Source: a phage
Reading direction: 5' to 3' (one strand)
Length of the DNA: 64,000 nucleotides
Assembly: GCA_021081985.1 (NCBI GenBank)
Contig: GCA_021081985.1_3639.1
Positions within the stretch are counted from its first letter, which is position 1. Every line of letters begins with the position of its first letter. The notes beneath the pieces are model-generated. The model was not told where the DNA came from and searched no databases. It saw nothing but the letters and a program-made list of their open reading frames with translations. This document shows positions 14,727 through 64,000 of the stretch, one piece after another. Position numbers and translations under genes: made by a program.

Positions 14727-14728
14727 TT

Positions 14729-14822: not shown

Positions 14823-14901
14823 CTGTATGTCAAGGCTCAGATTTCTTCGGACCTGGGCGTTCGCCTTTGTTGGGTGTATATTCTCGGCAGAGGCTATCTT
14901 T

Positions 14902-15213: not shown

Positions 15214-15290
15214 GGATCTGTAGCCAAATGGTTTAAGGCACTCGACTTTTAATCGAGAGATTGTTGGTTCGAATCCAACCAGATCCACCA
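15214..15290 (+). tRNA. tRNA-Lys (UUU)
   Basis: Acceptor GGATCTG/CAGATCC, anticodon arm CTCGA-CTTTTAA-TCGAG, T-arm GTTGGTTCGAATCCAAC, CCA. Confidence 0.85.
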
Positions 15291-15299
15291 AAATATTCA

Positions 15300-15390
15300 G
15301 GTTCTTTGACCGAGTGGTCGATGGTGACGGCCTGTTAAGCCGTTGGGAGGAATCTCCCCACCGAAGGTTCGAATCCTTCAGGAACCGCCA
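15300..15390 (+). tRNA. type II tRNA with GUU anticodon (nominally Asn)
   Basis: Acceptor GGTTCTT/AGGAACC, anticodon arm ACGGC-CTGTTAA-GCCGT, 19-nt variable arm with hairpin GGGAG/CTCCC, T-arm GAAGGTTCGAATCCTTC, CCA. Confidence 0.55.
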
Positions 15391-15474
15391 ATTCTTGACT
15401 TAATCAAGTCACAGATATCACCTAGCCAGCGATACCAGTTAGTAGATTCTGGGACAATTAAAATCTACATTTCT

Positions 15475-15552
15475 CTGTCCGTAGCGCAGCTTGGGTAGCG
15501 CGGGTCACTTGGGATGATCAGGTCGTTGGTTCAAATCCAACCGGACAGACCA
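15475..15552 (+). tRNA. tRNA-Pro (UGG)
   Basis: Acceptor CTGTCCG/CGGACAG, D-arm GCGC..GCGC, anticodon arm GGTCA-CTTGGGA-TGATC, T-arm GTTGGTTCAAATCCAAC, CCA. Confidence 0.8.
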
Positions 15553-15594
15553 ATAAACATATACATATCAAAGCAGAAATGTACAGAGGATACC

Positions 15595-15786
15595 ATGTTA
15601 ACAGTTAAAGTCGTATCTCCAAATGATGAACAAATTTTTTGTGGGAAAATTGTTGGGTATTGTGCTCATCAAAAGTCTATAGCTATTTCAGGTATTGACC
15701 AAAAAGTGTTTTTGTCTGAGGATCAGACCGCTTATGTGATCAATGCCAATGGAAAAACTATTTCTGTGTATCGTGGAAAACCGTAA
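15595..15786 (+). CDS. hypothetical small protein
   Basis: ORF track 15514..15786 begins inside tRNA-Pro; internal Met (MLTVKVV...) taken as start. Confidence 0.3.
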   Translation: MLTVKVVSPNDEQIFCGKIVGYCAHQKSIAISGIDQKVFLSEDQTAYVINANGKTISVYRGKP

Positions 15787-15800
15787 CTCTTAATATAAAT

Positions 15801-15877
15801 GGGCGATTGATGGAATTGGTATACATGTCAGGCTTAGAACCTGAATTTTGGGGGTTCGAGTCCCTCATCGCCTACCA
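15801..15877 (+). tRNA. type I tRNA with UAG anticodon (nominally Leu)
   Basis: Acceptor GGGCGAT/ATCGCCT, anticodon arm TCAGG-CTTAGAA-CCTGA, 5-nt variable loop, T-arm GGGGGTTCGAGTCCCTC, CCA. Confidence 0.55.
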
Positions 15878-15882
15878 ATTAT

Positions 15883-15958
15883 GTGACGGTAACTCAGTTG
15901 GTAGAGTGCCTTGCTGAAGACTAGGTGGTCACAGGTTCGAATCCTGTCCGTCACACCA
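15883..15958 (+). tRNA. tRNA-Phe (GAA)
   Basis: Acceptor GTGACGG/CCGTCAC, D-arm ACTC..GAGT, anticodon loop CTGAAGA, T-arm ACAGGTTCGAATCCTGT, CCA. Confidence 0.75.
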
Positions 15959-49775: not shown

Positions 49776-50039
49776 ATGCTAAAATCAATATTGAAATTTT
49801 TAAAAGATCTTGTCAGATCCCCAGTAAATCCAGAGAAGGCATCTCACACAAAATTTTGGAGTAATATCGGATTAGCTGCAATGACAGCAGTTTTTTTAGA
49901 TTGGGGTTTCAAAGGCACATTAACGGAGTGGTATATGTGGGTGTATGCCCCCACAGTAGCTGCCCCGCAGTTAATAAGTAAGTTAATATCTCTACGTTGG
50001 GGTGTAGAAGCACAACGTAGGGAAGAGTCAGACCAATAA
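49776..50039 (+). CDS. small membrane protein
   Basis: 87 aa with one hydrophobic segment. Confidence 0.35.
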   Translation: MLKSILKFLKDLVRSPVNPEKASHTKFWSNIGLAAMTAVFLDWGFKGTLTEWYMWVYAPTVAAPQLISKLISLRWGVEAQRREESDQ

Positions 50040-50049
50040 GGAGATTCTT

Positions 50050-51804
50050 GTGGCAGACATGACTAAATTTGAACAGGCGGTCGATCAGGTTGTAGAAGAT
50101 TCTGAACGCCTTCATAAAGTTGTCAATGGAGCAGCTACTGAAACTGTAGTTACAGAGGATGGCAGTCTGATACCTACAGTCAGAAAAGCATTTCTTGACA
50201 ATTTATTCTTTAAAACACCTCCACTGCCGTGGGTTGCTGGACAACAGACGACGGTATTTAATCAGTTGTATGCCTATACAGGGGAAAGAGGTGTCCAATG
50301 GTGGTATGCACCCGGTGCGACAGAGAGTTCGCCTGTAACACTACCTCCTAATCCAGTCAATAATGTTAACTGGAGATTATACAACGATTTAGAATCTATG
50401 TCTCAGCTATTTGCGCCTATTGACAGCCCTATTTTTACAGGGAACCCTCAAGCACCAACACCATCAGCGGATAGTAACAGTACAACTCTGGCAACAACAC
50501 AATTCGTTACTAGAGCTATTGCTACTGCTTTGGCTGGAATTGCGGGTGGCAACGGTACATTCGCGGATCTTACTGTAACAGGTTTAGCGAGTCTTAATAC
50601 GCTTTCTGTTGGCGGTGTGTCAACATTTAATGGGCCTGTTAATGCTGAAAATCAAACAGGAAAATTCCAGAATCTTATCTTAACAAAAGATAATTCAAGT
50701 CTATCTTTTGCCTACAGTGATGATTCTAACCCGACGTTTATAAAAACAAGGCTTGAAGCATACTCAGCGCAGACACATCAGTTACATACAGACATCATCA
50801 TAAACGGTGTGCCAGTAGCAGACAATACAACAATGTCTTTCACAGGTCTTGGTAATAATACCTTCGACTATGTTTACATTACAGGTAACTCTAAAAAAGA
50901 CCCTTCTGAAGCTCGTCTTAAAGTCTTTGGGATGACAGAACTTGAAAACTTAAAGATCACAGGTACTGTAACAGGACTTTCTTTTTCTGTCAATGGGGAA
51001 GATATCTCGCCTAATTCTGTAACAACGGCACAAGGGGTTACTGTAGGTGGTGATTTACAAGTCAATGGTAACACCAATCTCAACAGTACAACATGTGAGA
51101 GCTTAGAAGTTACTAACAACCTTGTTGTTAATGGACAAGCCAGCCTCAAAGATTTCTCCTCTACAACTGGTAATGTCACAGGGCTATTAACTTTGGGGGA
51201 GGGATTTACTGCTACTGGCGACGGGTCTGTAGGCGGTGATCTAACTGTCAACGGAACTTCAACCCTTGGTAAGATAATATCTGATGGCGATGTGACTTTA
51301 AATAGATCTTCTGGCACAACAACAGTAAACAATTTGGTTGTTAAGGGGACTGTATCTGGTATTACGTTTGATTTGACAGGACAAAACGTAAACGTAGCAT
51401 CTCTTTCTGCTCAAAGCAGTGTAACAACAAATCAGTTATTTGTTAACGGCCAGGCACAACTTTCTTCCACCAATGTAAGTTTTCTAACTTTACAATCGGA
51501 AGAGGTTGACGATCCAACAGCAACATGGACACCAAGCGGCACATCCAACATTTATAATATCACAGTGAATAAAAATCTGACAATCGGAGCATGGCCTGAT
51601 CCACAGCAACCTTTCTCCGCTATGATTTATCTGACGCAGGATGCCACAGGTGGACACAGTGTGATTCTGGATCCTAATTATGTTGTCCTTAACAGCGAAA
51701 CTGTTAATACAGCAGCAAATTCAGTTACCATCCTTCAATTAACCTTTAACGGTGTTGAAGATGGGGTTGTTGACACCATTATTGTCCGTAGACCACAACC
51801 ATAA
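50050..51804 (+). CDS. tail fiber protein
   Basis: 584 aa; fiber motif SPIFTGNPQAPTP...LATTQFV; Thr/Gly/Asn-rich beta-repeat C-terminal half. Confidence 0.6.
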   Translation: MADMTKFEQAVDQVVEDSERLHKVVNGAATETVVTEDGSLIPTVRKAFLDNLFFKTPPLPWVAGQQTTVFNQLYAYTGERGVQWWYAPGATESSPVTLPPNPVNNVNWRLYNDLESMSQLFAPIDSPIFTGNPQAPTPSADSNSTTLATTQFVTRAIATALAGIAGGNGTFADLTVTGLASLNTLSVGGVSTFNGPVNAENQTGKFQNLILTKDNSSLSFAYSDDSNPTFIKTRLEAYSAQTHQLHTDIIINGVPVADNTTMSFTGLGNNTFDYVYITGNSKKDPSEARLKVFGMTELENLKITGTVTGLSFSVNGEDISPNSVTTAQGVTVGGDLQVNGNTNLNSTTCESLEVTNNLVVNGQASLKDFSSTTGNVTGLLTLGEGFTATGDGSVGGDLTVNGTSTLGKIISDGDVTLNRSSGTTTVNNLVVKGTVSGITFDLTGQNVNVASLSAQSSVTTNQLFVNGQAQLSSTNVSFLTLQSEEVDDPTATWTPSGTSNIYNITVNKNLTIGAWPDPQQPFSAMIYLTQDATGGHSVILDPNYVVLNSETVNTAANSVTILQLTFNGVEDGVVDTIIVRRPQP

Positions 51805-51808
51805 TATA

Positions 51809-51835
51809 AAAGGCCACAGCAGTGGCCTTTGTTTT
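51809..51835 (+). terminator. rho-independent terminator
   Basis: AGGCCAC-agca-GTGGCCT followed by TTGTTTT. Confidence 0.65.
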
Positions 51836-51845
51836 AGGAGGATTA

Positions 51846-53789
51846 ATGTATCCAATTCCTTGTTTTTATATCATAATTTCCAATAACCCTCTAGCCAACT
51901 CCATTTCCTTAACCTCCCTCGGTACGTGTCTTAAAGGAGGCAAAGCACAATTAATATGGTCTGTTGTGCCGGAAGGTGCAGACTTGCATGATATAACATT
52001 TACACCAGACAAACCGACGATTGTATCTGTTGATCCTACGGGGCTAGTATCTTTTCTTGAAGATGGTGATTTTATCATTACAATGTCTGCAAAGACTGGC
52101 AAAGGAGACGAAGAAAAGACCTTAACAGCGCAAATCAATGGTCATATCGATACACTACGCATTGATGTTGATCCTATAGGCAGCAGAAGCATTAATGATA
52201 GATTCTGGTTTGTCTACAAAGGCGACCCGTCTTTTGACCCAAGCAATCCGAATCCGAATATGATTGGCTTTAACATCTCTCCAGCAGAAGTTATGGAGGA
52301 GGATGACTTTTATGTCACCGCAGTTTCTGAAACACCTGATATATTAAGTCTGGCTCCTAGTGGTATCATCACATGTGTTAGTAAAGGTGTTGGGCATTGT
52401 GGTATGAAAGGAACCTATAAGGATGTGACAGTAACGACACTTACCGATGTATATGTAGATATAGCACCACAACTTATAAATCCGACTGCTGTAGCCAACA
52501 GTTATGGTGACGTTAAGATAGCGTGGGATGTTCAATTTCCCTCCTTGGATGATATTTATACCGTAGAGGTTTATGATTCTGAAGGGATGGAGGTTGTGTG
52601 GAGTAAGAAAACCAAAGACACATTCGTATTCTTTGATGTTACAGAATCAGTGCCTATCTTTGGATTTGCCCCTACATATCTTAAAGTGGTCATCAAAGGA
52701 TCAGATCCAGAAACACAACCTATATCTTTTAATAATAATGTAACTGTTGACGACTCTTTTGTTAAAGAGGTGCTTGTTTTTGCTGGCGGTGATAACGCAG
52801 CAGCACATTTTAACTCTTTTTCTGGTAGGGATAAAACAAGCCAAAGTGCAACCGTAGCACGTAATGAGTATGCTCTTAGCAAAGGGTTTTACCCAGCAGA
52901 AGTATTACCAATCAATGCCGCATTCATTACATCTTGTGCAGAAGCACAGGCAAACTCCTCTACAGGGTTAGCCACAAATTACTGGTATGACGTTAGTTCC
53001 TCCACAGCAGGTCCGTGTCTAACACAATTCCTTGCGAAGGTTAAACCTTATAAGGATAAAATTAAGGCTGTTTTCTGGTCGTTAGGGGAACAAGATGCCA
53101 TGGTAGCAGCAGCAAAACAGGAGGGGAAACATAGCGATGATGCTCGTTTTCAGACTGCTATGACCGCCATCTTTGAAAATATCCGATCTGTTATCACAAA
53201 TCCTGAAGCTAAGATTGTATTGCAGACACTTGGTAGATGCTTTGATGATAGTGTGGAAGTAGGTGGTGTTGAGTGGTATCGTTATAGAAGTATTCAACAA
53301 CAGTTAGTGGTAGATTCCGGGGGTGAGGTTATAATTGGCTCTTGGGTTGATGGTGCTGAACACTATGGCAATTATGTTGTTTCAGGGGCAGGTGATGGTT
53401 TAAGAATACAGTACCGACCAACAATTTATAAGAATGCCGCAGTATCCTTGGCTAACATGGAGGACTTGTCGAACACACCTCCTGTTTGGGTGGATATGAA
53501 AGTTCCCATGGGAGGAAAGGCAGTAAGGCAAGCAAACCAGGATATTCTTTTATCATGGGATACCAGAGGCTACAACAAGTTCTTTCTTGTTAACTTTGAT
53601 GTCCTGACAGGGGCTGTTATATCCCAACAAACATTGACCACCAATAGTTACACATTTACCTACGCAGATCAAGTAAAACAATACGGGTATGCTGCGGGTA
53701 CAGTTTTGTTTGGTGTTGCATATGTTCAAACAACCAGTAAAGGTGATATTACATCTCCGTTGGCGAAATTCAGTATCAATGTAGCGTGA
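51846..53789 (+). CDS. tail-associated protein, possible C-terminal esterase-like domain
   Basis: ORF track 51822..53789; start moved to ATG after RBS AGGAGG. C-terminal half has VFAGGDN...DGAEHY, loosely SGNH-esterase-like. Confidence 0.45.
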   Translation: MYPIPCFYIIISNNPLANSISLTSLGTCLKGGKAQLIWSVVPEGADLHDITFTPDKPTIVSVDPTGLVSFLEDGDFIITMSAKTGKGDEEKTLTAQINGHIDTLRIDVDPIGSRSINDRFWFVYKGDPSFDPSNPNPNMIGFNISPAEVMEEDDFYVTAVSETPDILSLAPSGIITCVSKGVGHCGMKGTYKDVTVTTLTDVYVDIAPQLINPTAVANSYGDVKIAWDVQFPSLDDIYTVEVYDSEGMEVVWSKKTKDTFVFFDVTESVPIFGFAPTYLKVVIKGSDPETQPISFNNNVTVDDSFVKEVLVFAGGDNAAAHFNSFSGRDKTSQSATVARNEYALSKGFYPAEVLPINAAFITSCAEAQANSSTGLATNYWYDVSSSTAGPCLTQFLAKVKPYKDKIKAVFWSLGEQDAMVAAAKQEGKHSDDARFQTAMTAIFENIRSVITNPEAKIVLQTLGRCFDDSVEVGGVEWYRYRSIQQQLVVDSGGEVIIGSWVDGAEHYGNYVVSGAGDGLRIQYRPTIYKNAAVSLANMEDLSNTPPVWVDMKVPMGGKAVRQANQDILLSWDTRGYNKFFLVNFDVLTGAVISQQTLTTNSYTFTYADQVKQYGYAAGTVLFGVAYVQTTSKGDITSPLAKFSINVA

Positions 53790-53796
53790 TAGCAAA

Positions 53797-53828
53797 ATAA
53801 AAGGGAGCTAAAAGCTCCCTTTTATTCT
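53797..53828. terminator. bidirectional terminator between convergent genes
   Basis: AAGGGAGC-taaa-GCTCCCTT with T/A runs on both sides. Confidence 0.7.
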
Positions 53829-54214
53829 AACTCACCTTTATAGGTGTATGGAATGTTATAATGGCTACATATTTGGTCAAGGATTTTTATAAGCAAATAC
53901 CTGTGGCAAAAGCCTCCTCCTTTACAATAACATGCAATTGCAAGAGGATCTTTAGTATTACAGAAATCAACAAACCACTGCTTATCTCTAATATATCTTT
54001 CCCTCATAATAGAGAGATACTCTTTTTCATATTGTTCTTTACCGATTGTCCCCTCTTTGTATGCCCACAAAAGATTTTTTGTTGGTGCTAACCATCTTTC
54101 ACCACAATGGTGTACTCCACTTTTTAATGTACAGTCAATAATCTGAATGTCTTGTTTCTTTGCAAGCCTCCATTTAGAGAGTTGCATTGTGTATATTTCC
54201 ATTAGAATACTCAC
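53822..54214 (-). CDS. DUF488 (YeaO)-like protein
   Basis: 130 aa; recalled resemblance to YeaO-family small proteins. Confidence 0.4.
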   Translation of the reverse strand: MSILMEIYTMQLSKWRLAKKQDIQIIDCTLKSGVHHCGERWLAPTKNLLWAYKEGTIGKEQYEKEYLSIMRERYIRDKQWFVDFCNTKDPLAIACYCKGGGFCHRYLLIKILDQICSHYNIPYTYKGELE

Positions 54215-54221
54215 TTTAACA

Positions 54222-54255
54222 GCAAATAAAAATGGAGGGTTCCACCCTCCATTTT
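54222..54255 (-). terminator. rho-independent terminator (minus strand)
   Basis: AATGGAGGGT-gga-ACCCTCCATT followed by TTTTATTT on the minus strand. Confidence 0.65.
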
Positions 54256-54264
54256 GTGTATTAA

Positions 54265-55482
54265 TTAAAGAATGTATACCCGATGTTTACCGTACTGTAG
54301 ACCTACAGGACTGAAAGGGATATCTTCATCATAGTCAAATTCAGGTGCTGGCGATTCCATATTCGGAATATCGCTATTGGAACTGTTCAAAGGTTCCTTA
54401 GCATGCTGTTTGTTCTTTTGTTGTGTCTTCCCATCACCTTTAGATAAGAACTCGTAAAACGGCTCTGATAGTGTTAGGTAAACATCTTTGGCGGCATTCA
54501 GAATACTATCTTCTGTTAGTTTATCGGTTTGATGATACAAAGCACAAGCCACTAAGATAGCATTACCCGCACTAGCGCCCACCGCATTAGATTCCACATC
54601 TTTTCCTGTTTTCTCTGCCACAAAAGCCTTCATAGCTACTGTAGCGTTGTGAACCATTTTCGCAGCAGAGAGACGATCCTCAATCTTAAAACCAGCTTTA
54701 ATGAGTTCCTTCACACCGTTGATGCCGTGCCCACAAGCAACACCTAAAGCATCATAACCACCAGATGACTTCTTAGTCTGCCCAGCAGGACCGTAGGCTT
54801 TAAACCCACCTAAGACCGTACCATCACTTAGGTTAACAATCGCAGTGACACGACCACCTACTACAACTTGCGACAATTGCTCATCTGTGAGGACAAGGTT
54901 TCCTTGACCATTCTTCTCATCATTAACTGTCACCACATTGCCAACGATTGCAGCAATCTCACCATAAATTTTAGTGCCTTTAACTTGGGCATTTGCAGGT
55001 GATTGGGTCGAAGATTGCTGGCGAGGAGCACTTTGACCAACTTTACTTTCATCGAGAATGCTGAAGGTCTTTCCGTTTAAAGTGCCGTTTGTATACGTTT
55101 TATCCCCACTCTTAGTAATTTTGAGAGGGAAAGAAACAACCATCCCCGCCACAATATCTTTGTATCCAGAATCAAATTTCACCTGAATTTTGTCTGCATG
55201 GCTTGGGTGAAGTTTTTTCTCACCCATAGAAATCCACTCACCTTGGCTCTGTGGGTCAATAACGTTGTTATTATCGTCAACCTCTTGCATCAGGAAACTG
55301 ATTGAGTGCGTAGCCTCAATAACTTTAGCTGGTTGCCCTTTGCGAGCAGGGATATGGGTACGCCGGATACCATCTGCGTCAGCGTTTTTCACTGGACGAA
55401 TATTAACATACTTGATAAAACCTTTCGCAAAATAATCAACTTTTCCGTTGATTGGATTCTTAAATTCATTGATTACGCTCAT
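54265..55482 (-). CDS. hypothetical protein
   Basis: 405 aa; Gly/Val-rich core; acidic EFDYDEDIPF motif close to, but not at, the C-terminus. Confidence 0.5.
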   Translation of the reverse strand: MSVINEFKNPINGKVDYFAKGFIKYVNIRPVKNADADGIRRTHIPARKGQPAKVIEATHSISFLMQEVDDNNNVIDPQSQGEWISMGEKKLHPSHADKIQVKFDSGYKDIVAGMVVSFPLKITKSGDKTYTNGTLNGKTFSILDESKVGQSAPRQQSSTQSPANAQVKGTKIYGEIAAIVGNVVTVNDEKNGQGNLVLTDEQLSQVVVGGRVTAIVNLSDGTVLGGFKAYGPAGQTKKSSGGYDALGVACGHGINGVKELIKAGFKIEDRLSAAKMVHNATVAMKAFVAEKTGKDVESNAVGASAGNAILVACALYHQTDKLTEDSILNAAKDVYLTLSEPFYEFLSKGDGKTQQKNKQHAKEPLNSSNSDIPNMESPAPEFDYDEDIPFSPVGLQYGKHRVYIL

Positions 55483-55496
55483 TCTCTCTCCTTTTA

Positions 55497-55838
55497 TTAC
55501 TTAACGCCTTCAGCAGTTTCGTTTCCAACGCTCAACATTTTATCTACCACTAAATCTTCAACTTGATTTAGCAGGTTCAATGCAAAAGTGGAAGCAGTAT
55601 TTAATTTCAACAAATTGTTGCGGTGTCCTCGGATCCATGAAATTGCATCCTCTACCGTTTTATAGTTACCACTTTGGATGAGCTTCAGCATCTCTTCTCG
55701 AATTTCTTTCGACCCGATTACTGTTCCCATCTGGTGACTGGCGCTGGACAAGTATACGATTGTTCCAAACTGCCCTTCATCAAGATCAAGAAAACGGATA
55801 TCCTCTTTATTTTCAGGTGTTTGTTTTTCTTTAGGCAT
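55497..55838 (-). CDS. hypothetical protein
   Basis: 113 aa. Confidence 0.4.
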   Translation of the reverse strand: MPKEKQTPENKEDIRFLDLDEGQFGTIVYLSSASHQMGTVIGSKEIREEMLKLIQSGNYKTVEDAISWIRGHRNNLLKLNTASTFALNLLNQVEDLVVDKMLSVGNETAEGVK

Positions 55839-55894
55839 GTCTATTCCTTACAAGGTTGTTGAGTATCACATCTTACACTATGCATGCATGTATG

Positions 55895-56086
55895 TCAAGA
55901 TGATTTTTTGTCTTTTTCTTGGAGAAAAGACAGGACAAATGCTGTAACCGCTATAATCAAAGGGGGCATGACAACAATTGCCCATGGTAGGTATAGAGGG
56001 GCAAGAACTAACCACCAAGACCAGTCTATAATCTCACACAACTTCAACGCTATGAAGAGAATGCTTAACGCAGATAAAAATCTCAT
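55895..56086 (-). CDS. hypothetical small membrane protein
   Basis: 63 aa with two hydrophobic segments. Confidence 0.3.
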   Translation of the reverse strand: MRFLSALSILFIALKLCEIIDWSWWLVLAPLYLPWAIVVMPPLIIAVTAFVLSFLQEKDKKSS

Positions 56087-56093
56087 AAAAACC

Positions 56094-56375
56094 TCAAGAG
56101 AAAAACTCTTCTATAACTTCCCAAATCCTTTCCGAATCCCCTCCTGAAAGGATACTCCAAATAACCATATCTTGATAGCCTTTCTTACACACATCCACTT
56201 GTCGAAATGCTTTGTGGAAACCCTCTGGACAACCATATTCCACAGGGAGCATATCCACATTATCTTCGAAATATTTAAGTAGCAATTCCTCTTCCAAAGA
56301 GGGATTGTTGCGAAGTTTCTCTTTGAGATTCTCAACAAGTTGTGCACCTGTTAACTTTTTGTTTGTCATGTCCAA
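56094..56375 (-). CDS. hypothetical protein
   Basis: 93 aa. Confidence 0.4.
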   Translation of the reverse strand: MDMTNKKLTGAQLVENLKEKLRNNPSLEEELLLKYFEDNVDMLPVEYGCPEGFHKAFRQVDVCKKGYQDMVIWSILSGGDSERIWEVIEEFFS

Positions 56376-56722
56376 TCTCCATTTTTAATTTCCAGTATAT
56401 CTACGCTCTCTGTTGGTACAAAACCAACAACAGGCTTCATACATTTCTCTTTTACATTGTCGAAAACATACATTTCATCCAATGCTTTTTGTGTTGTGCA
56501 CGATTCCCAGTTTTTTGTGTACTCTTTGTAACCATCCTCGTAAAGGAGAAAGTAGTTAATAGTTGTTGCCCCAAGAATAACGAATATAACAAAAGAGACA
56601 ACAACGTGTTTCCATGTTCCTTTATACGATAAAATGAAAGCCCAAATAGAACACAACACATAAAACGATAAAGCAGGGAACCAGTTATTATGCACTTGGA
56701 CCCACTCTAAAAAAGACATCAT
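56366..56722 (-). CDS. hypothetical membrane protein
   Basis: 118 aa with hydrophobic N-terminal half. Confidence 0.4.
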   Translation of the reverse strand: MMSFLEWVQVHNNWFPALSFYVLCSIWAFILSYKGTWKHVVVSFVIFVILGATTINYFLLYEDGYKEYTKNWESCTTQKALDEMYVFDNVKEKCMKPVVGFVPTESVDILEIKNGDWT

Positions 56723-56726
56723 GTCT

Positions 56727-57020
56727 CTATCCTTTATTCATATATCTCTTCCAGTCAGAAACAATGTTAGATGCAAGCTGATAAATTCCGTTGGCATGTC
56801 CATCAGTTTTTGCTGCCGCTTTTACATACGGTAGGGATTGTTCGAGAGCATCCACAATCAAGGGACACATTGCAATAGCCAAAGCTAGATTCCCGTTTTC
56901 AGCGGTACAGATTGGGGAGTAGCTCTCCATTCCGTTTCCGTATTTCTCAAGACTACCTTTAACAATAACTTGGTTTTCACCAAACAAATCCTCGTGATGT
57001 TCCCACATTTCTTTGGTCAT
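56727..57020 (-). CDS. hypothetical protein
   Basis: 97 aa. Confidence 0.4.
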   Translation of the reverse strand: MTKEMWEHHEDLFGENQVIVKGSLEKYGNGMESYSPICTAENGNLALAIAMCPLIVDALEQSLPYVKAAAKTDGHANGIYQLASNIVSDWKRYMNKG

Positions 57021-57242
57021 CTAGTTATTCCTCAATTTTGCCATTGCATTATTAAATATTTTTTCGAGTTTCCTGTATTTAATCTTTTGTTTTATGCTTA
57101 ACTTTTGTCGGACTCCACCAACCATTGCGCCATAATACTTAAATAAAACAACACGTCTATTGCTTACTTTTAATACTTGGGATTCCCTTTTCCTTGGCAG
57201 GAGAAGGATTTTAGCTTTGCGATTTTTCATCTTTATCTCCAA
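57021..57242 (-). CDS. hypothetical small basic protein
   Basis: 73 aa. Confidence 0.35.
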   Translation of the reverse strand: MEIKMKNRKAKILLLPRKRESQVLKVSNRRVVLFKYYGAMVGGVRQKLSIKQKIKYRKLEKIFNNAMAKLRNN

Positions 57243-57741
57243 TCATCTTATCCAGTTTTCGCCACATATCCCACACACCACCATTACCTATTGTGTTTTT
57301 CGATGGAGTCACACAGGCGATAAATTCCAGATCAGTACCTTTATTCATGAGATATTCAGAGAGCAGACCAGAAGCAACAAGTTTTATATTTCCAAGATCT
57401 TCTTCAAGCTCTTTAATACGAGCCTGTGCTTTTTCAATTTCTTCCTTATGTCTTTTGTATTCTTGAAAAGCGTGCCAAGATTGTCCTTTATGAACACTTT
57501 CACAAATGGCCTCTACTTGCTCTTTTGAGAGCACAGTGAGTGGTTGAGATGGGAAAATCATTATTTGTCCACTATCCCAATCGAATCCTGCATGTATAGA
57601 TTGAACATCAACCGAAGGTGTTGCTCCAACAGTACCTGGGGAATGAATAACAATTGTTACTTTAGTGTCTGGATCCTGATATTGTTTCCCACGTAAAGAG
57701 GCTATATGGTTAACCAAGTCTGCGAATTTAGAAAGTTCCAT
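57211..57741 (-). CDS. hypothetical protein
   Basis: 176 aa. Confidence 0.45.
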   Translation of the reverse strand: MELSKFADLVNHIASLRGKQYQDPDTKVTIVIHSPGTVGATPSVDVQSIHAGFDWDSGQIMIFPSQPLTVLSKEQVEAICESVHKGQSWHAFQEYKRHKEEIEKAQARIKELEEDLGNIKLVASGLLSEYLMNKGTDLEFIACVTPSKNTIGNGGVWDMWRKLDKMIGDKDEKSQS

Positions 57742-57995
57742 TATTCTACCTCCCCAACATAGATAAAGTCTTCTTTGAACTGTTTGTATGTTAAACAGTG
57801 CTCTAAATAACCCTCGTTAATTTTAATCAAAGGGTAGTCAGTAATCAAGACATGATTTAAACCAACGGCAGTAACAAGGTATTTCTGCTCTGGATCCCAA
57901 GACAATTTAGACTTGTACAAACAACCTTGTCTAATTTTAAAATCTTCCACACACCCACCCTTCACAGTTGTGATCACGACATCCTTCAAAATCAT
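57741..57995 (-). CDS. hypothetical protein
   Basis: 84 aa. Confidence 0.35.
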   Translation of the reverse strand: MILKDVVITTVKGGCVEDFKIRQGCLYKSKLSWDPEQKYLVTAVGLNHVLITDYPLIKINEGYLEHCLTYKQFKEDFIYVGEVE

Positions 57996-58623
57996 ATGGG
58001 CTGTACTGCCAGGTTATTTTTCCGCAGTGCGGACAATTCCAGCGCACCTTCCCGCTTCGTGACTTCTTCCTTCTGTTTTGCTTTTTCAACCAGTCTGGCA
58101 TGATCAAACCTGCGCCCTGAACCATTGTTCTGCGGTTAAAGTTATTGATATTGAACGTCCGGCGCTTTGCTGCATCAGCAATGGAAAATGGCAACCAAAC
58201 TATTCCTGGTTCGTTTTTGTTGGCGACGCTAAAGATGGTTGCTTTACTGAAGTCATCGGTTGGCAATCCACCGTGTTGAAGCCAGTAAACATCGTTGCCG
58301 TTCCAGCTACCTTTTTTGTAGGCCACATACGCAGTGCAATCTGGCTCAATCAGGCTTTCTGTAGGGATGTACTGGCAATCAACGTGCCACACAGCCATTG
58401 CATCCACGCTATCGGCGCAAACAGGCTGATCGATATCTCGACCACAATTCCAGGCTTTTTGGGCTTCTTCCAGCGTGTAAACATGAGCGCGATCGATATC
58501 AGAACTGTAACCATTGCCGTTATGGCAATGTAATGAGGCGTTATTACCCACAGTTTCACGCAAGCACATCATGTAAAAACGGTTGCTCACTGGTTGCCTC
58601 CGTTGCGAAGCTGTTCCGCACAA
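57937..58623 (-). CDS. hypothetical protein with C-terminal zinc ribbon
   Basis: 228 aa; CPHCG...CRDHNCEGWVC; noticeably higher GC than surrounding genes. Confidence 0.45.
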   Translation of the reverse strand: MCGTASQRRQPVSNRFYMMCLRETVGNNASLHCHNGNGYSSDIDRAHVYTLEEAQKAWNCGRDIDQPVCADSVDAMAVWHVDCQYIPTESLIEPDCTAYVAYKKGSWNGNDVYWLQHGGLPTDDFSKATIFSVANKNEPGIVWLPFSIADAAKRRTFNINNFNRRTMVQGAGLIMPDWLKKQNRRKKSRSGKVRWNCPHCGKITWQYSPYDFEGCRDHNCEGWVCGRF

Positions 58624-59036
58624 TGCCGCAGGGCATCCGTAGCATCTTTAAGCGTAACCATCTCGTCATCATCCAGTCCTGCTCCCCTCGCATTCATGAC
58701 AAACGCTGCGCAAAGGTCGTTAAACACTTCAGCCCGTATTTCAGCCAGAAAAGCATCGGTGGCTGGGGTTTTGATATCATAAATTTCAGGAAGAATCTCT
58801 TCCCATGCAGAGATATCGCCATTCAAATGCCAATCGGCAACCCCACTGGAGTTATCAGCAACATTGTGGACAGCTTTAATTGCCCTGTGCAGCACTATAT
58901 TTTCAGCGACTAGCTCTGCACAACGAGTCGCAAGTTCGGAGATTTTCTTTTTATCATGGTATTTCTCTTCTAAAAGAGTTGCACATTTAGCACCAAGACG
59001 TTTGATTTCATCAATGTGCACCGATTTCTTAGTCAT
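58587..59036 (-). CDS. hypothetical protein
   Basis: 149 aa, higher-GC segment. Confidence 0.45.
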   Translation of the reverse strand: MTKKSVHIDEIKRLGAKCATLLEEKYHDKKKISELATRCAELVAENIVLHRAIKAVHNVADNSSGVADWHLNGDISAWEEILPEIYDIKTPATDAFLAEIRAEVFNDLCAAFVMNARGAGLDDDEMVTLKDATDALRHCAEQLRNGGNQ

Positions 59037-59256
59037 GGCTAATTACCCCTTCCTTCAATAACTCGACATTAGTTTTGAGTTCTGCAATTTGACACATGGC
59101 GTCAATATTTGTGTCTTCTAACTTCTTAATTTCATCAAGAAGTGCCAGCACAAGCTGAGGCGTGACCATAGCACGGTAGTCAGTTATTTCTTGATGAGTA
59201 CCACCATCTCTTGCTATCTCTGCTAACTTACGTAATTCTTGGTAGTCAATTTTCAT
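59029..59256 (-). CDS. hypothetical small protein
   Basis: ORF track 59029..59376 overlaps the upstream gene; internal Met (MKIDYQEL...) taken as start. Confidence 0.3.
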   Translation of the reverse strand: MKIDYQELRKLAEIARDGGTHQEITDYRAMVTPQLVLALLDEIKKLEDTNIDAMCQIAELKTNVELLKEGVISHD

Positions 59257-59632
59257 AACTTGATAAGTCCTGTGTTGTTTTATTGACTGCATTATATGCC
59301 TCTTTGAGCACCCAGTCAACAGCATCTTTCCATGCTCCGGTTTCGACTGGTGGATTCTCACGCTTAACCTGTTCATAGAAGCGCACTGCTTTAATCAATC
59401 CTTCTAAGGTTACAGGTGTGGTGTATAACGCCTGAATTTCGTAGTTTGGTCTGTCGTTACAATCTTCTTTTGTTGGGACATATTTCCAGTCACCAGTCCA
59501 CAGATTTCCCTGTTTTACATAACGATAGCGCCAAGCAACTGGTTGTTGGGTTGCTGCTTTAAGGCTTGGTGACGAAGGTGGAAGCGCAACATTAGTCATT
59601 ACCGAGATGACAGGTTGATAACCATTGCTCAT
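59246..59632 (-). CDS. hypothetical protein
   Basis: 128 aa. Confidence 0.4.
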   Translation of the reverse strand: MSNGYQPVISVMTNVALPPSSPSLKAATQQPVAWRYRYVKQGNLWTGDWKYVPTKEDCNDRPNYEIQALYTTPVTLEGLIKAVRFYEQVKRENPPVETGAWKDAVDWVLKEAYNAVNKTTQDLSSYEN

Positions 59633-59807
59633 TTAAATCTCCTCCTGCCTCATATGCCACTTGTAACCAATACATAAATGTTTCAATAGAAACACAACCA
59701 CAATCCACATCAATCTGGTCATGTTGTTGTTCCAACCACTGCTGAAAACGTGATTTTTGAGTATCAGTCTCTGGTTGTTCTTTTATCATTATCACCCCCA
59801 TCGGCAA
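59592..59807 (-). CDS. hypothetical small protein
   Basis: 71 aa. Confidence 0.3.
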   Translation of the reverse strand: MPMGVIMIKEQPETDTQKSRFQQWLEQQHDQIDVDCGCVSIETFMYWLQVAYEAGGDLNEQWLSTCHLGND

Positions 59808-59871
59808 ACTGAGTACACTGCAAAGGCTACAGCCATTACAACCCCTACCGTTGTGAATGCTTCAGGCCAAG

Positions 59872-60534
59872 TCATTGATTCATCCCCTTCTTTTTGAGCA
59901 TAGCGGCACGACAGGCATTCCAGCCATCAACATAATCAAACGTATTGCTATCGTCTGGCTCGATTTCATCCGGTACTGCCAATGTCGCCTGGGCGGCAAC
60001 ATTGGCAAAGGCTGCACGCAACCCTGTCTTAATCTCCTCTACCTCATCAGCGCCTAGCGATGAATCTGATAGTGCATGATGGAATGCGTATGCCATGTCG
60101 TCGTTTACTGTTATCGGTTCCACTTTCTTTACTGTAAGTGTTGGCGGTACATGATACAACGGGATTACACGACGCGGGTCTGTACCTTTACTTGGTGGGT
60201 ACGGCATTATCCAGCCTAAACCAATCTGATCAACATCCCGCAACTCCTCTTCGTCCGTCCATCCCACCGGTTCTGCTCTCAACTCCACCTGCGCATTAGG
60301 GGAGGTGTAGAGTGGGATTCCTTTCCTCCCACCAGAAAATTCATTGCGAGCGTTATACTCACGACCATCTGCGTCCTCACACATCCATGCTACAGGCTCT
60401 GTTTCCAGCACTGCCAGAGCAATTCGAGCCAGTTCTTGCGCTTCTTCTGCTGGCAGTACAACGTTGCCACCAAGTCCGTATGTTTCACGCCACTGCTTGA
60501 TTGTCAGCAGACGTTCTTTGGTAATAGTGATCAT
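59872..60534 (-). CDS. hypothetical protein
   Basis: 220 aa, higher-GC segment. Confidence 0.45.
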   Translation of the reverse strand: MITITKERLLTIKQWRETYGLGGNVVLPAEEAQELARIALAVLETEPVAWMCEDADGREYNARNEFSGGRKGIPLYTSPNAQVELRAEPVGWTDEEELRDVDQIGLGWIMPYPPSKGTDPRRVIPLYHVPPTLTVKKVEPITVNDDMAYAFHHALSDSSLGADEVEEIKTGLRAAFANVAAQATLAVPDEIEPDDSNTFDYVDGWNACRAAMLKKKGMNQ

Positions 60535-60536
60535 AC

Positions 60537-60797
60537 CTATTTCACCTTAATCTCAACATTTCTCATATCTAGCTCTACGGGGAGTTCTGACTTTCCGGTC
60601 AGTGCTAATGCAAGATTTTCTGGGGTAACAAGGACAGTTATTGTTTTTCCTCTCTCCAGACGAATAGCCATTCTTATCTTGTCATCATCACCTGTGTTAG
60701 GTCGAGTAATTGATATTTGTCCGTTCATATATTTATCCTCTGTTATTAACATGCCAATCCTTAATAAATAGTTATGTGAATGAAAGAAAGCAACCAA
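60537..60797 (-). CDS. hypothetical protein
   Basis: 86 aa. Confidence 0.35.
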   Translation of the reverse strand: MVAFFHSHNYLLRIGMLITEDKYMNGQISITRPNTGDDDKIRMAIRLERGKTITVLVTPENLALALTGKSELPVELDMRNVEIKVK

Positions 60798-60904
60798 AGA
60801 ATTGACTCAATAGCTGCCCAACCAATAACTGCACAAACAACACCAAGAAACAAGAAAAAACCAGTACCGGGCAAATTATTGAACATCCTCACTCCCCCTT
60901 GTTA

Positions 60905-61210
60905 TTAACACACTGTAAAAGCAAGTGGTGAAGTGTACACTTCAATTTTTCCGTTATCAATAGGCCATTCTCCATCTTTGATATAGTCGCTTGTACCATC
61001 GACTCGCTGCTCTGCGATATGGAAAGCACCAATCGGTTTTGCTTCTAATGCATTTAATGCGATCTTGGCAATCTCCAAATCAAGAGATACCGTATCAAAA
61101 ATCTTCTTATACTCATCTCCAGCCTCACCAACACGCTGTTGGAGGTCTTTCAGATGGTCGACATTAGAACGAACATGCTTAAGTAGCTGCTCTTTTGTAA
61201 ATTTTTTCAT
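60905..61210 (-). CDS. hypothetical protein
   Basis: 101 aa. Confidence 0.4.
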   Translation of the reverse strand: MKKFTKEQLLKHVRSNVDHLKDLQQRVGEAGDEYKKIFDTVSLDLEIAKIALNALEAKPIGAFHIAEQRVDGTSDYIKDGEWPIDNGKIEVYTSPLAFTVC

Positions 61211-61218
61211 AAGTCACC

Positions 61219-61482
61219 TTATCCTGCTGTACTTGCCACTACCGAGGGAAATGTAATACTCTCTTCAAACAAAGCGTCAAGGTTTTCAACAGCCATGCAA
61301 AAATCAAATGCCGTCCCAGAGTCAAGCGCCTTAAAAATTTTATCTTCACGGCGTAAATCGTACAGATAAATATGCCTATCCCCTATGGTATAAAAACCTA
61401 TCTTTTTTGGGGATGGGCAACGATCAATGATGCTTTGAAGGTCTTTTAACCACTTCTTTTCTTCTTTTGTCAGTTTTGGCAT
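61219..61482 (-). CDS. hypothetical protein
   Basis: 87 aa. Confidence 0.35.
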   Translation of the reverse strand: MPKLTKEEKKWLKDLQSIIDRCPSPKKIGFYTIGDRHIYLYDLRREDKIFKALDSGTAFDFCMAVENLDALFEESITFPSVVASTAG

Positions 61483-61484
61483 AA

Positions 61485-61976
61485 TTACTCTTCCCTTTTG
61501 AATAATACATCCCGTAATACAGGAACGCTTTTATCCATACTTGCTTTAAATTGTCCACTGTCCGCACTTGCCCATGTATACACAACCATTTTAGCAGCGT
61601 CGCTCAAAGTTTCATACTTATTTCTTAAAGCTCCTTGCTCCTTCTTGAACAAATCTATATTGTCTTGTACCCATTGCAAGCGTTCTTTGTTCTCATGGCA
61701 AGTATTTTTAAACATTTCTCTACTATAAGGACTTGTCTGGTTGAAAGGCAATCTTTTATCTAGCCCCGCCTTTTCGAAATCATCATGCAGCATGTCTAGT
61801 AGGTCATCCATGTAGCCGGACAAATGATTCACATTACACCAATCATATAAATTAGCACACAAACCGCAGTTACGAGAGAAAATATCAGAGTCTGGTGCTC
61901 CTCTTTTTACCCAAGCATCGTAAGAAAGGTAAAAACTTTGTAGTAAGACATGTAGCTTTGTAATATCAAAATTCAT
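61485..61976 (-). CDS. hypothetical protein
   Basis: 163 aa. Confidence 0.45.
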   Translation of the reverse strand: MNFDITKLHVLLQSFYLSYDAWVKRGAPDSDIFSRNCGLCANLYDWCNVNHLSGYMDDLLDMLHDDFEKAGLDKRLPFNQTSPYSREMFKNTCHENKERLQWVQDNIDLFKKEQGALRNKYETLSDAAKMVVYTWASADSGQFKASMDKSVPVLRDVLFKREE

Positions 61977-62434
61977 CGTTCGAAATCTCCATTACGAAGT
62001 TGTTCTGCATAAAGAAGGGCTTGCTTTCCCGCATAGATGATGCTTTCTTCTTGCTCCTGCTCTCCGATACTGATTGTGAGCATACCGTACATATGAACAC
62101 CTTGAGCCATCATCTCTGTGGAGAACTTCTTTGTGGCTTCCAAACCAGGCATCAAAGGTGATTGATCTGCTGGGGTATATGCATCAGAGATATCAGATTG
62201 TTCCCCATCAAAAACATAACAACTCTCACGAATGAACTTCTTTAGGAGTGCATTTTCTGATGCTACGTCAATGAACATACCCTCCAGTTTCTTGTAGTCA
62301 TCGTAAGAAACCATGTCTGTACAGAAGGAACTCCCTTGTACAGGGGGTGATAAATAGTCACTTGGTATTGCATGTATCTTTACATTTCTCATAGAAATTC
62401 TCCACAAAGTGTCAGGTAGTGAAATGATACACAA
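61973..62434 (-). CDS. hypothetical protein
   Basis: 153 aa. Confidence 0.45.
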   Translation of the reverse strand: MCIISLPDTLWRISMRNVKIHAIPSDYLSPPVQGSSFCTDMVSYDDYKKLEGMFIDVASENALLKKFIRESCYVFDGEQSDISDAYTPADQSPLMPGLEATKKFSTEMMAQGVHMYGMLTISIGEQEQEESIIYAGKQALLYAEQLRNGDFER

Positions 62435-62458
62435 ACAGATTGCCTATAGCATGTGTTC

Positions 62459-62830
62459 TTAATTAGCCAATTCAGCATCCAACGACATTATATACTCAGG
62501 TAGCTTTCGGATGTTCTCATACAGCACAATCTCTCCGTGTGTCAATGGCCTGATTTCTTTATCCACACCAACATTATTATGGTAATCCCAATCTGCATCA
62601 ACATGGACGAAGACCTGTGTTCCTCTATTGCCAGCCTTAGCGTCCTTTCTTACGATAATCTCTCCGTCTATTGAAGGTAGGCATCTTTTAAAGAATTTGT
62701 TTAAAAGTTCTTGTTGAATTGCTTCTGCCAAGATCATTTTGTCTTGGCTATCTACGATTCTTTTGATTTCAGAGTCGTTTACTTCAACATCAATAAGTTG
62801 TGTTGTTGTCTGTGTTCCTTTTACTTTCAT
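62459..62830 (-). CDS. hypothetical protein
   Basis: 123 aa. Confidence 0.4.
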   Translation of the reverse strand: MKVKGTQTTTQLIDVEVNDSEIKRIVDSQDKMILAEAIQQELLNKFFKRCLPSIDGEIIVRKDAKAGNRGTQVFVHVDADWDYHNNVGVDKEIRPLTHGEIVLYENIRKLPEYIMSLDAELAN

Positions 62831-62875
62831 GCCACCTCTTCTTTTAAAAAGGTGCTTTTCAGCACCTTACCATTT

Positions 62876-63178
62876 TTAGTGGGAATCTGCCCATGTGTAT
62901 CCACAAAGATATTCTCCTGTAATTAAAACGGGAAGCCCCATTATCTTAGATGCTTTTTCTACACATTTTGTTGCAAGCTCTCCTACTGGGCAATGCAGTA
63001 TCCTGTATTTCCCATACACATCAGGTTCAACAATAACTTTACCTGCTTTCACATAATGCCCGTCGAAACGATGACCTTTTTCAAGCATCATGTCTACATA
63101 GCTTTGTGCAGCCTCTAAGTTAGAATGCTCCGTTATTGATTTAAATCTTTCCGGTACTTGTACCTGTATCTCATCCAT
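62876..63178 (-). CDS. family A DNA polymerase, C-terminal part (motif C to C-terminus)
   Basis: Begins MDEIQV (HDE-like motif C region) and ends GYTWADSH, matching the Pol I C-terminal WxxAH pattern; frame is open upstream of the first ATG. Confidence 0.7.
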   Translation of the reverse strand: MDEIQVQVPERFKSITEHSNLEAAQSYVDMMLEKGHRFDGHYVKAGKVIVEPDVYGKYRILHCPVGELATKCVEKASKIMGLPVLITGEYLCGYTWADSH

Positions 63179-63184
63179 CAGTTC

Positions 63185-63444
63185 AGAGAGTTCGTTACGC
63201 TCTCCCGCACCATTACGTGCATAGCCACAAGATTTCTCCTGTGGGTCGGACTATTTCATCCTCCTAATGTTAAGGAGGCCTCCCGTTTCGACCGCACTTG
63301 CTGGCCTACTCTACTCGCTTTCACATTACTAGTGTGCTTTCGATAGTCTCTGAACGTTCATCCCGTAGGGATGCTTCGCTGCGGATTAGCATATTGAACT
63401 TTTACCACTTTTACGTATAAAAGTCAACTTAGCCTTCCCGTCAA
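63185..63444 (-). mobile_element. putative ORF-less group I intron in DNA polymerase gene
   Basis: About 260 nt non-coding insert between the motif B and motif C exons; contains a 38-nt core (63351-63388) nearly identical to the terminase intron. Boundaries approximate. Confidence 0.5.
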
Positions 63445-63978
63445 TTAAAGAGGTTTTCGACATGCATTACTGCATGAAGCCACAATTTGTTTATGGTAGT
63501 AGATAACCCTCCTGACACCTTGGTCGTACCATCCCCGTTTTACCAATTCCCAATGGAACAGGACTCCCATGAGGTCAAACAATGAAGCACCACCGTTTTG
63601 TTGGTAAGCATTCAGCAGAGAATGTTTAGAACGAGTCCAAATTTTACGCCCGTCCATGCCTGGAATATAGCGTCTGCCATTTGCCTCCCAGAATTTTTCC
63701 AACCACTCTCTACGCATTTTCAACCCGAAGTTACTATCCCAGAATGCGTCTATTACAGCCTGTGCTCTATTAAGGGGGATACCCAGCATTGCGGCTATCT
63801 TAGGAGCTTGTGCTCCATACATAATTCCATACGTAACCCCCTTTCCTCCAGAGCGTGTTACCTCCTTTCCTGCTGCTATTGTGTATGCTCTTGCGTTTCG
63901 TTCATGGGCATCCTCTTCCATCATGATACGTAAATACTCACCACCGTCAAACTCAAAAGCCCCTGCCGCTGCAATCAT
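63445..63978 (-). CDS. family A DNA polymerase, upstream part containing motif B (ORF-track fragment; N-terminal region beyond first ATG and window edge not assessed)
   Basis: TRSGGKGVTYGIMYGAQAPK matches Pol A motif B (R..K..YG..YG). Confidence 0.7.
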   Translation of the reverse strand: MIAAAGAFEFDGGEYLRIMMEEDAHERNARAYTIAAGKEVTRSGGKGVTYGIMYGAQAPKIAAMLGIPLNRAQAVIDAFWDSNFGLKMRREWLEKFWEANGRRYIPGMDGRKIWTRSKHSLLNAYQQNGGASLFDLMGVLFHWELVKRGWYDQGVRRVIYYHKQIVASCSNACRKPL

Positions 63979-64000
63979 ACCTTCTAAGTTAGATCCATCA

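Follow-up and report, generated by a model that had tools for sequence, protein, structure and literature searches.

The exo-xis ('ea') region of phage lambda groups small accessory genes that have one orientation and are expressed very early, and its Ea22 protein combines a shared N-terminus and a coiled coil with a C-terminal domain that can be swapped; proteins of the Ea22 type are highly mosaic between phages and are the earliest expressed in infection (PMC10834534). Related genes are found in the ea region of P22 (Lederbergvirus; EaA, EaE) and in the hea operon of P7, which includes upf87.6, a homologue of hkaG of HK620. The present study deals with a patch of elevated guanine plus cytosine (GC) content at 57937-60534 of a 64,000-nucleotide stretch of phage DNA (NCBI GenBank assembly GCA_021081985.1, contig GCA_021081985.1_3639.1; hereafter the window). 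The patch was found to lie in a cassette of eight co-oriented small genes (57955..60728, minus strand), which belongs to a leftward early operon and whose ends are those of the nucleotide matches to temperate-type phages, the matches beginning at 57955 and ending at 60728.

The window was assigned to an Avunavirus (Vequintavirinae), its identity being 95-97% with Escherichia phage Av-05 as well as with four Avunavirus records derived from marmots. A lytic lifestyle is ascribed to the Vequintavirinae, the newly characterised members of which have neither integrase nor repressor genes (PMC11370258). The cassette resembles the lambda ea region in that it groups small accessory genes of one orientation that would be expressed very early, whereas the window is that of a lytic myovirus, which has no lysogeny decision to bias. 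We regard it as likely, with the proposed entry, expression and role included in this judgement, that a 2.8-kb temperate accessory cassette of the ea/nin/hea type resides in the early operon of a lytic Avunavirus and that the GC-rich patch is the portion of it that has ameliorated least. The case is one of ordinary phage mosaicism by way of the lambdoid accessory-gene pool; it is unusually well documented, and both the lytic recipient from the Vequintavirinae and the presence, among the genes, of a member of a large, conserved and structurally orphan family are notable.

Temperate-phage matches and base composition

The comparison of positions 57000-61500 with phage records gave 118 matching records, 112 of them from temperate phages and 6 from Avunavirus. 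The temperate records were those of Shiga toxin (Stx)-converting and other lambdoid phages, P22-like Salmonella phages, P1/P7/SJ46-like phages and IME10; the cassette itself matches lambdoid and Stx phages, P22-like and P1/P7-like phages as well as Escherichia coli prophages, its modules having nucleotide identities of 77-97%. Both flanks served as controls: seven records matched 50001-57900, all of them Avunavirus or Vequintavirinae, and 60600-64000 matched only Avunavirus and Vequintavirus DNA-polymerase sequence. The patch is the sole part of the 50-64 kb interval that has temperate-phage matches at the nucleotide level.

At base level, 57955-58606 is 94-97% identical to P7 upf87.6, to P1-like plasmids, to an Stx2c phage and to hkaG of IME10, and 59298-59512 is 82-86% identical to mEp460, 689R5 and 606R7; the corresponding values were 85% for 59897-60120 and 82-92% for 60389-60728. 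The foreign DNA thus extends past the right edge of the patch into a gene of 63 codons at 60537-60728. The temperate homologues sit in the ea region of P22, in the interval of lambdoid prophages that separates the replication genes from the late genes, and in the hea operon of P7. Part of the patch is held by 1,318 of 5,426 complete E. coli genomes, and the hkaG-like gene by 280, mostly on plasmids; none of the 5,426 carries 80% of the patch in one place. A search for bacterial rather than phage best hits had been proposed as a check on the acquisition; the best matches proved to be both, coming from E. coli prophages and from P1-like phage-plasmids.

The initial annotation had described the genes at 57937-58623, 58587-59036 and 59872-60534 as visibly richer in GC than their neighbours, and the measured values agree with this description. 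The GC content of 57937-60534 is 0.460 (46.0%), that of the whole window 0.401 (40.1%). Among all segments of 2,598 bp (mean 0.4006, standard deviation 0.0177) the patch is in effect the maximum (z about 3.4), its GC content being reached by only 0.07% of the segments, each of which overlaps the patch. Two peaks were distinguished, one at about 57950-58950 (up to 0.50) and the other at about 59800-60600 (up to 0.516); in the interval separating them, at 59029-59807, the GC content falls to 0.39-0.43. The background genes have a GC content of 0.400 (standard deviation 0.039) and a third-position GC content (GC3) of 0.349 (standard deviation 0.066); the respective values for the three genes, all on the minus strand, were 0.477 and 0.498 for 57937-58623, 0.460 and 0.407 for 58587-59036, and 0.499 and 0.448 for 59872-60534. 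Elsewhere in the window a few short open reading frames (ORFs) reach a comparable GC content, and since they overlap the cluster of 14 transfer RNA (tRNA) genes they are considered artefacts.

The codon usage was analysed as a per-codon synonymous log-likelihood ratio, in which temperate-phage genes non-homologous to the patch were set against the leave-one-out backbone of the window. The three genes took ranks 1, 2 and 3 among the 67 genes of at least 300 nucleotides (z 3.5, 3.0 and 2.95) and were the only ones to exceed the backbone maximum, so that codon usage, like GC content, sets them apart from the rest of the window. The reference temperate-phage genes have a GC content of 0.484, and the composition and codon usage of the patch fit a donor pool of this kind. 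At the level of sequence, the origin and the composition of the cassette DNA are those of the temperate pool. An explanation without any transfer, in which the rise in GC would reflect amino-acid composition, local selection or an assembly chimera with prophage reads, could draw on the first-position GC content (GC1) of 0.60-0.62 in two of the three genes (58587-59036 and 59872-60534) and on the modest shift of GC3. It is hardly credible in view of the 95-97% nucleotide identity to temperate phages over 650 bp, the shifted synonymous codon usage of all three genes, and the recurrence of the same junctions in eight or more independent assemblies, obtained from isolates and from several metagenomes.

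Modules and joints of the cassette

The leftmost gene of the cassette (57937..58590, minus strand) is the counterpart of hkaG and of P7 upf87.6. It codes for a protein of 217 residues with a conserved N-terminal domain of about 165 residues, a basic linker and a C-terminal four-cysteine zinc ribbon; the start is most likely the GTG at 58590, which overlaps the upstream stop codon as GTGA (58587-58590), rather than the TTG at 58623. The protein matches phrog_2457 over its full length (E 1e-115) and has 145 homologues of about 215 residues, the best of which are 95-97% identical. Proteins of this type, which have no Pfam domain, are encoded by both prophages and plasmids, in Escherichia, Klebsiella, Yersinia, Pantoea, Acinetobacter and further genera. 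The gene is a direct homologue of hkaG, upf87.6 and phrog_2457, with 94-97% nucleotide identity and equal length, and like hkaG and upf87.6 it stands just downstream of an Ead/Ea22-like gene, with stop and start overlapping. Unlike these, the copy in the window has its last six codons replaced at the Avunavirus joint, and whereas the hea operon of P7 is under control of the C1 repressor, the window offers no repressor context.

A profile search extended the hkaG-like family to 880 cluster representatives, among which no informative fusions were seen and whose longer members carry no Pfam domain. The neighbourhoods of the distant members show nothing beyond early prophage accessory regions, such as early-left operons between repressor and integrase. 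The protein ends in CPHCG-x14-C-x4-C, none of the four cysteines (C186, C189, C204 and C209) varies among 52 diverse homologues, and the structure model has strands at 182-185 and 192-195. Across the family the Pfam signals are weak and all come from zinc-ribbon models; a zinc-ribbon protein had been named for this region from the outset, and the assignment is confirmed here as a predicted metal site of the C4 type. The structure model of the protein is confident, and the search with it returned no fold relative. The zinc ribbon and the basic linker would fit binding of nucleic acid or of protein. The designation 'putative tyrosine phosphatase' in the record of P7 upf87.6 was rejected, the Cys-x5-Arg motif being absent and its cysteine unconserved.

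At the left joint of the cassette (57950..57960, minus strand), temperate homology ends at 57955, six codons before the stop of the hkaG-like gene, at the ribosome-binding site and GTG start (57950) of the next Avunavirus gene. The joint reads ...GAAGGGTGGGTGTGTGGAAGATTTTAA and gives a new protein tail, CEGW|VCGRF, in place of the CEGWRE of the temperate copies. The two genes overlap by 14 nucleotides at 57937-57950.

Upstream of the hkaG-like gene, an Ead/Ea22-like gene is represented in the window and in most relatives by two minus-strand ORFs with an 8-nucleotide overlap: an N-terminal fragment of 75 residues at 59029..59256 (MKIDYQELRKLAE...LALLDEIKK), annotated as a coding sequence of 228 nucleotides in Av-05 and 24-2-1, and a distal part of 149 residues at 58587..59036, with a coiled coil and a swappable C-terminal domain (phrog_492/27745/368/614). 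In the relative designated L013 the gene at the equivalent locus is intact (170 residues) and is hit by the Pfam family Ead_Ea22 (PF13935). The 75-residue ORF is 66% identical to the N-terminus of this gene, the 149-residue ORF aligns with its C-terminal two thirds, and the homology of the pair to PF13935 follows from this joint alignment and from the matches to PHROG 368, 492 and 614. In direct searches the product of 59029-59376 scored 19.7 bits with Ead_Ea22, below the cut-off of 27, and the 149-residue product had no Pfam hit. Both halves contain the 'LLDEIK / IDEIKRL' motif, as if recombined within the coiled coil. The shared N-terminus, the coiled coil and the swappable C-terminal domain are features of lambda Ea22, from which the gene of the window differs in its splitting into two overlapping ORFs and in its Pfam score below the cut-off; a PDB sequence search with the window protein gave no similarity to the solved C-terminal domain of lambda Ea22.

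The gene at 59872..60534 (minus strand) codes for an EaA-like modular protein of 220 residues, in which an N-terminal module (MxTITKERL...LEAEPVAW) is followed by two internal modules and by a C-terminal one (VNDDMAYAFHHALSD...GWNACRAAML). More than 7,000 homologues are found through the N-terminal module, which in E. coli prophages is joined to DUF551, DUF550 or Ead_Ea22; full-length matches to the protein are confined to Avunavirus-like contigs. The protein itself has no Pfam hit and no DUF551 (PF04448), which in the homologues lies C-terminal to the shared region, and its AlphaFold2 model (predicted local distance difference test score 52.7) was too poor for a structure search. A second protein, of 128 residues (59246..59632, minus strand; phrog_660, E 8e-33), contains the 'PVAW' linker-module typical of prophage proteins of the DUF551/EaA type. 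Together with a 101-residue protein of low GC content encoded at 60905-61210, these two have a beads-on-a-string organisation, with a shared N-terminal module and 'EPVAW...PLYxxPP' linkers. Such modules recur in thousands of prophage proteins whose final domain is DUF551, DUF550 or a zinc-binding one; the proteins of the window have no such domain. The N-terminal and internal modules of all three proteins, and boundary motifs recognisable at the nucleotide level, are held in common with the P22 ea region and the prophage DUF551 proteins; unlike the latter, the window proteins lack DUF551 itself, so that with these only linker and N-terminal modules are held in common.

Two smaller genes also belong to the cassette. 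The minus-strand ORF at 59592..59789 comprises 65 residues as called in Av-05 and in metagenomic contigs, and reaches 59807 if started from a TTG; it belongs to phrog_924 and has matches of 74-80% to P7, pEc1077 and 606R7. The 63-residue lambdoid-type gene at 60537..60728 (minus strand), outside the patch as first delimited, matches phrog_1222 (E 2e-35), the match covering residues 24-86 of a longer ORF. It is 82-85% identical at the nucleotide level to Stx2a phages and to a prophage of A0 34/86, contiguous with the N-terminal module of the EaA-like gene, and its GC content of 0.40 is low, as is that of the donor-type copy (0.43). The low-GC neighbours at 60905-61210, 61973-62434 and 57211-57741 belong to the same module families, recognisable at the protein level only, which suggests that they are older, ameliorated layers of the same gene traffic.

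The internal joints fall at gene ends and at short motifs kept across many temperate phages, namely 58583-58613 (85-97% temperate match), 58732-58778 and 60389-60537. The second of these motifs encodes TPATDAFLAE(I/V)RA and has short matches of 86-96% in several temperate loci. The C-terminal domains diverge right after it and vary among Avunavirus genomes, and a deletion of 614 bp in the lineages L010/L011 ends at 58732; the motif may act as a recombination hotspot. The cassette is a mosaic of modules, the joints of which, as judged from the alignments, lie at gene boundaries and at short conserved motifs. Joints at short motifs are the pattern expected if an infecting genome recombines through short shared sequences with resident prophages or phage-plasmids. 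The cassette may have entered, and may have been renewed, by recombination of infecting phage DNA with E. coli prophages or P1-like phage-plasmids, and this would have proceeded at short shared motifs as relaxed homologous recombination. De Paepe et al. in 2014 reportedly described such relaxed homologous recombination between phages and resident prophages, dependent on Rad52-like recombinases. The position of the joints at short motifs and gene boundaries, and the near identity of one allele to a copy in a resident element, resemble that process, whereas that work is said to concern temperate phages and the recipient here belongs to the lytic Vequintavirinae.

History and variation among Avunaviruses

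Av-05 and the marmot phages carry the cassette, as do six Avunavirus-like contigs from different metagenomic samples, a distribution which excludes both an assembly artefact and an acquisition private to this phage; every sampled Avunavirus has the cassette either intact or as a deleted remnant. It is absent at the nucleotide level from other Vequintavirinae, and a search of IMG/VR returned Av-05 itself as the only match. A clean empty site was sought among the sampled Avunaviruses and was not found. The lineages L010/L011, two metagenomic Avunavirus contigs, were rejected as candidates for such a site, their 614-bp deletion (58118-58731 of the window), which takes most of the hkaG-like gene and the C-terminal domain of the Ead-like gene, having left a 181-bp remnant of the former. 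The hkaG-like gene is dispensable, because these two lineages carry the deletion.

The early region as a whole is very rich in insertions and deletions among genomes that are otherwise 94-98% identical. L010/L011 also lack about 1.8 kb further upstream (60568-62375, five small early genes). A Dam-like DNA methyltransferase (PF02086, 292-296 residues), which the window does not have, is encoded at 4756-5646 of L015 and 2481-3359 of L017, between the homologues of 60905-61210 and 60537-60728, and is another variable accessory gene at the cassette hotspot.

The synonymous divergence (dS) of the hkaG-like gene among Avunaviruses is 0.13 and that of backbone genes 0.13-0.19, which places the acquisition around the base of the sampled Avunaviruses, before their radiation. 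The relatively recent acquisition proposed in the initial annotation is accordingly retained as to foreign origin, which the temperate nucleotide matches, the GC content and the codon usage strongly support, and is abandoned as to an event recent or private to this phage, the cassette being common to all sampled Avunaviruses with a dS like that of the backbone. The hkaG-like gene is barely ameliorated, its GC3 being 0.46-0.505 in Avunaviruses and 0.49-0.514 in the temperate copies, and 'recent' holds on the scale of amelioration only. The ratio of nonsynonymous to synonymous divergence (dN/dS) amounts to 0.09 in the hkaG-like gene, and three other cassette genes have ratios of 0.15 (59246-59632), 0.19 and 0.26 (59872-60534); these values are similar to those of backbone genes (0.12-0.22) and indicate purifying selection on the four cassette genes. 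The genes are individually dispensable yet selected, and are kept in a phage without lysogeny.

The comparison of fixed differences and derived sites was made without the allele of 24-2-1, which is of the temperate type. The six Avunavirus alleles of the hkaG-like gene form a shallow star-like clade, set apart from the temperate copies at three fixed positions close to the 3' joint; identity is 95-97.5% among these alleles and also between them and the temperate copies. The greater diversity of these alleles compared with the four sampled temperate alleles (97-99%) is what a transfer in the opposite direction might leave, with genes native to Avunavirus donated to temperate phages. Such a direction is very improbable: the GC content of the gene (0.47) and its codon usage fit the temperate pool (0.48) and not the Avunavirus backbone (0.40), the family with its 880 cluster representatives extends far beyond the host range of Avunavirus (Yersinia, Acinetobacter, Pantoea, Methyloprofundus), and all the other cassette modules belong to huge prophage families (>7,000 hits).

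The allele of 24-2-1 is 99.8% identical to that of P7 and nests among the temperate copies; in this lineage the temperate-type DNA is about 200 bp longer and replaces about 1.5 kb of backbone. An allele so close to that of P7 makes it appear that exchange is continuing, and the C-terminal domains that vary from genome to genome likewise show a cassette still undergoing reshuffling.

Several observations weigh against a cassette of temperate origin that is expressed early and still renewed. Near-identical temperate counterparts exist for the hkaG-like gene only, the other modules being 72-92% identical, which implies donors outside the sample or older transfers. The GC1 of the second and third genes means that part of the GC excess is due to amino-acid composition. 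The changes derived specifically in Avunaviruses, 24 from GC to AT and 13 from AT to GC, have the direction expected of amelioration and are not significant (p = 0.10). The P7-like allele is that of four scaffold assemblies, which are related to one another, derive from marmots and probably belong to one study, and it may be a local assembly chimera. Finally, early expression of the cassette is read from its position and orientation.

Operon setting, possible roles and neighbouring features

The 54-64 kb interval is a leftward operon of small genes, which runs from the DNA-polymerase region to a hairpin at 54255-54229. This hairpin (minus strand) is strong and terminator-like, with a 12-bp stem followed by a T-run directly after a gene of 405 codons, and is probably the end of the leftward early operon. 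The cassette genes would be transcribed early with the surrounding operon and would be translationally coupled.

The genes had also been proposed to be morons, which often carry host-interaction functions. The moron concept was reportedly developed for lambdoid phages by Hendrix, Juhala and colleagues. In the classical form the genes would be autonomous units with their own promoter and terminator, recently added and conferring a host-interaction or conversion phenotype. The extra DNA of deviating composition (GC 0.460 against 0.401, codon ranks 1-3 of 67) is moron-like, and its variable presence among relatives, in some of which a gene is absent or deleted, may be so as well. A strong promoter-like site, a possible internal sigma-70-type promoter (59291..59319, minus strand; TTGACT-17-TATAAT), also lies within the cassette on the correct strand, 35 nucleotides upstream of the 75-residue ORF. 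It matches at 11 of 12 positions, a score reached by only six sites when both strands of the 64 kb are counted, and it is unchanged in seven other Avunavirus assemblies; its conservation proves little, since it lies inside conserved coding sequence. No terminator-like hairpins were seen beside the genes, and the counts of promoter and terminator sites equal the expectation from shuffled sequence, so that a promoter and a terminator of their own flanking the genes are not in evidence. The genes overlap start to stop with each other and with backbone genes (GTGA at 58587-58590, 14 nucleotides at 57937-57950) within a long co-directional early operon, the cassette is common to all sampled Avunaviruses rather than added to one, and a lytic phage has no prophage state in which conversion could be exerted. 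Unlike lambdoid morons, the genes form no autonomous promoter-terminator unit and would be translationally coupled in the operon of a lytic phage. In the strict sense the term is not supported, and the classical moron is an unlikely description of this locus.

Scans of all cassette proteins with Pfam, NCBIfam, PHROGs and PADLOC returned no functional annotation; nine proteins scanned with PADLOC had no hits, and PDB sequence searches with four cassette proteins gave only noise. On the preferred explanation, a temperate accessory cassette in the early operon, the zinc-ribbon, coiled-coil Ead/Ea22-like and PVAW-module proteins would bind host or phage macromolecules early in infection, in a role that would serve lytic as well as temperate phages, for example tuning of host physiology or counter-defence, rather than in the decision between lysis and lysogeny. 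This role, early, independent of lifestyle and exerted by macromolecule binding, is our best guess and is held with low confidence. Lambda-type 'ea' genes are here kept by selection in the absence of lysogeny, and their conserved role is therefore probably not lysogeny control.

It is tempting to speculate that the products, and the hkaG-like protein in particular, are counter-defence factors directed against restriction or abortive infection, a tentative proposal which would refine the function and leave the origin unaffected. It is consistent with the location in an early operon, with the variable accessory regions in which the temperate copies stand beside methyltransferases, umuDC and similar genes, with strong purifying selection in a lytic background, with the presence/absence polymorphism, and with the Dam-like methyltransferase inserted at the same locus in L015/L017; the missing hits to PADLOC and to functional families lend it no support. 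Such a role would explain the circulation of the gene among lambdoid prophages, P1-like phage-plasmids and lytic phages. A broader possibility, doubtful at present, is that the hkaG-like protein stands for a large family of orphan fold with a zinc ribbon and without a studied member, acting as a lifestyle-independent early effector of counter-defence or host takeover and moving at near-identity among P1-like phage-plasmids, lambdoid prophages and strictly lytic Vequintavirinae. Were this so, the strong purifying selection that keeps the gene in a lytic phage would imply that genes of the 'ea-region' are generally not lysogeny-decision genes. A conserved, structurally orphan zinc-ribbon family of this kind is a tractable target for functional study.

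The data presented here quantify a gene flow from the pool of temperate coliphages and prophages to a lytic phage group relevant to therapy, relatives of Av-05 being in use against E. coli O157:H7 and Salmonella. The apparently continuing exchange of DNA between 'strictly lytic' genomes and resident prophages or phage-plasmids bears on the safety assessment of therapeutic phages.

Further differences from the relatives were noted in the neighbourhood of the cassette. An extra gene of 136 codons, Av05_00115 (3751-4245 of the Av-05 record, L001), stands in Av-05, L013 and L015 between the gene for 176 residues and that for 69/84 residues, and is lacking in the window (57741-57760). The L014 homologue of the 176-residue gene (57211-57741 in the window) contains an in-frame stop and is possibly a pseudogene there. 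At the opposite end of the window, the records matching 1-8000 annotate a DNA ligase, a SIR2-family deacetylase, a nicotinamide phosphoribosyltransferase and a ribose-phosphate pyrophosphokinase, and the region looks like the NAD+ salvage module typical of Avunavirus-type phages. The cluster of 14 tRNA genes on the plus strand at 9627-15958 (Met, Thr, Cys, Tyr, Gly, Gln, three Ser, Lys, Asn, Pro, Leu and Phe) probably explains the cross-genus megablast matches of 1-25000 to Pseudomonas, Acinetobacter and Campylobacter phages. A homing endonuclease of the HNH/NUMOD4 type adjoins the DNA-polymerase gene in Av-05 (9677-10315) and in L013 (3074-3712), and is missing from the corresponding site of the window (62830-62878). 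The DNA polymerase of the window (62876-63978) is present as separate ORF fragments at 62876-63178 and 63445-63978, which suggests interruptions of the homing-endonuclease or intron type.

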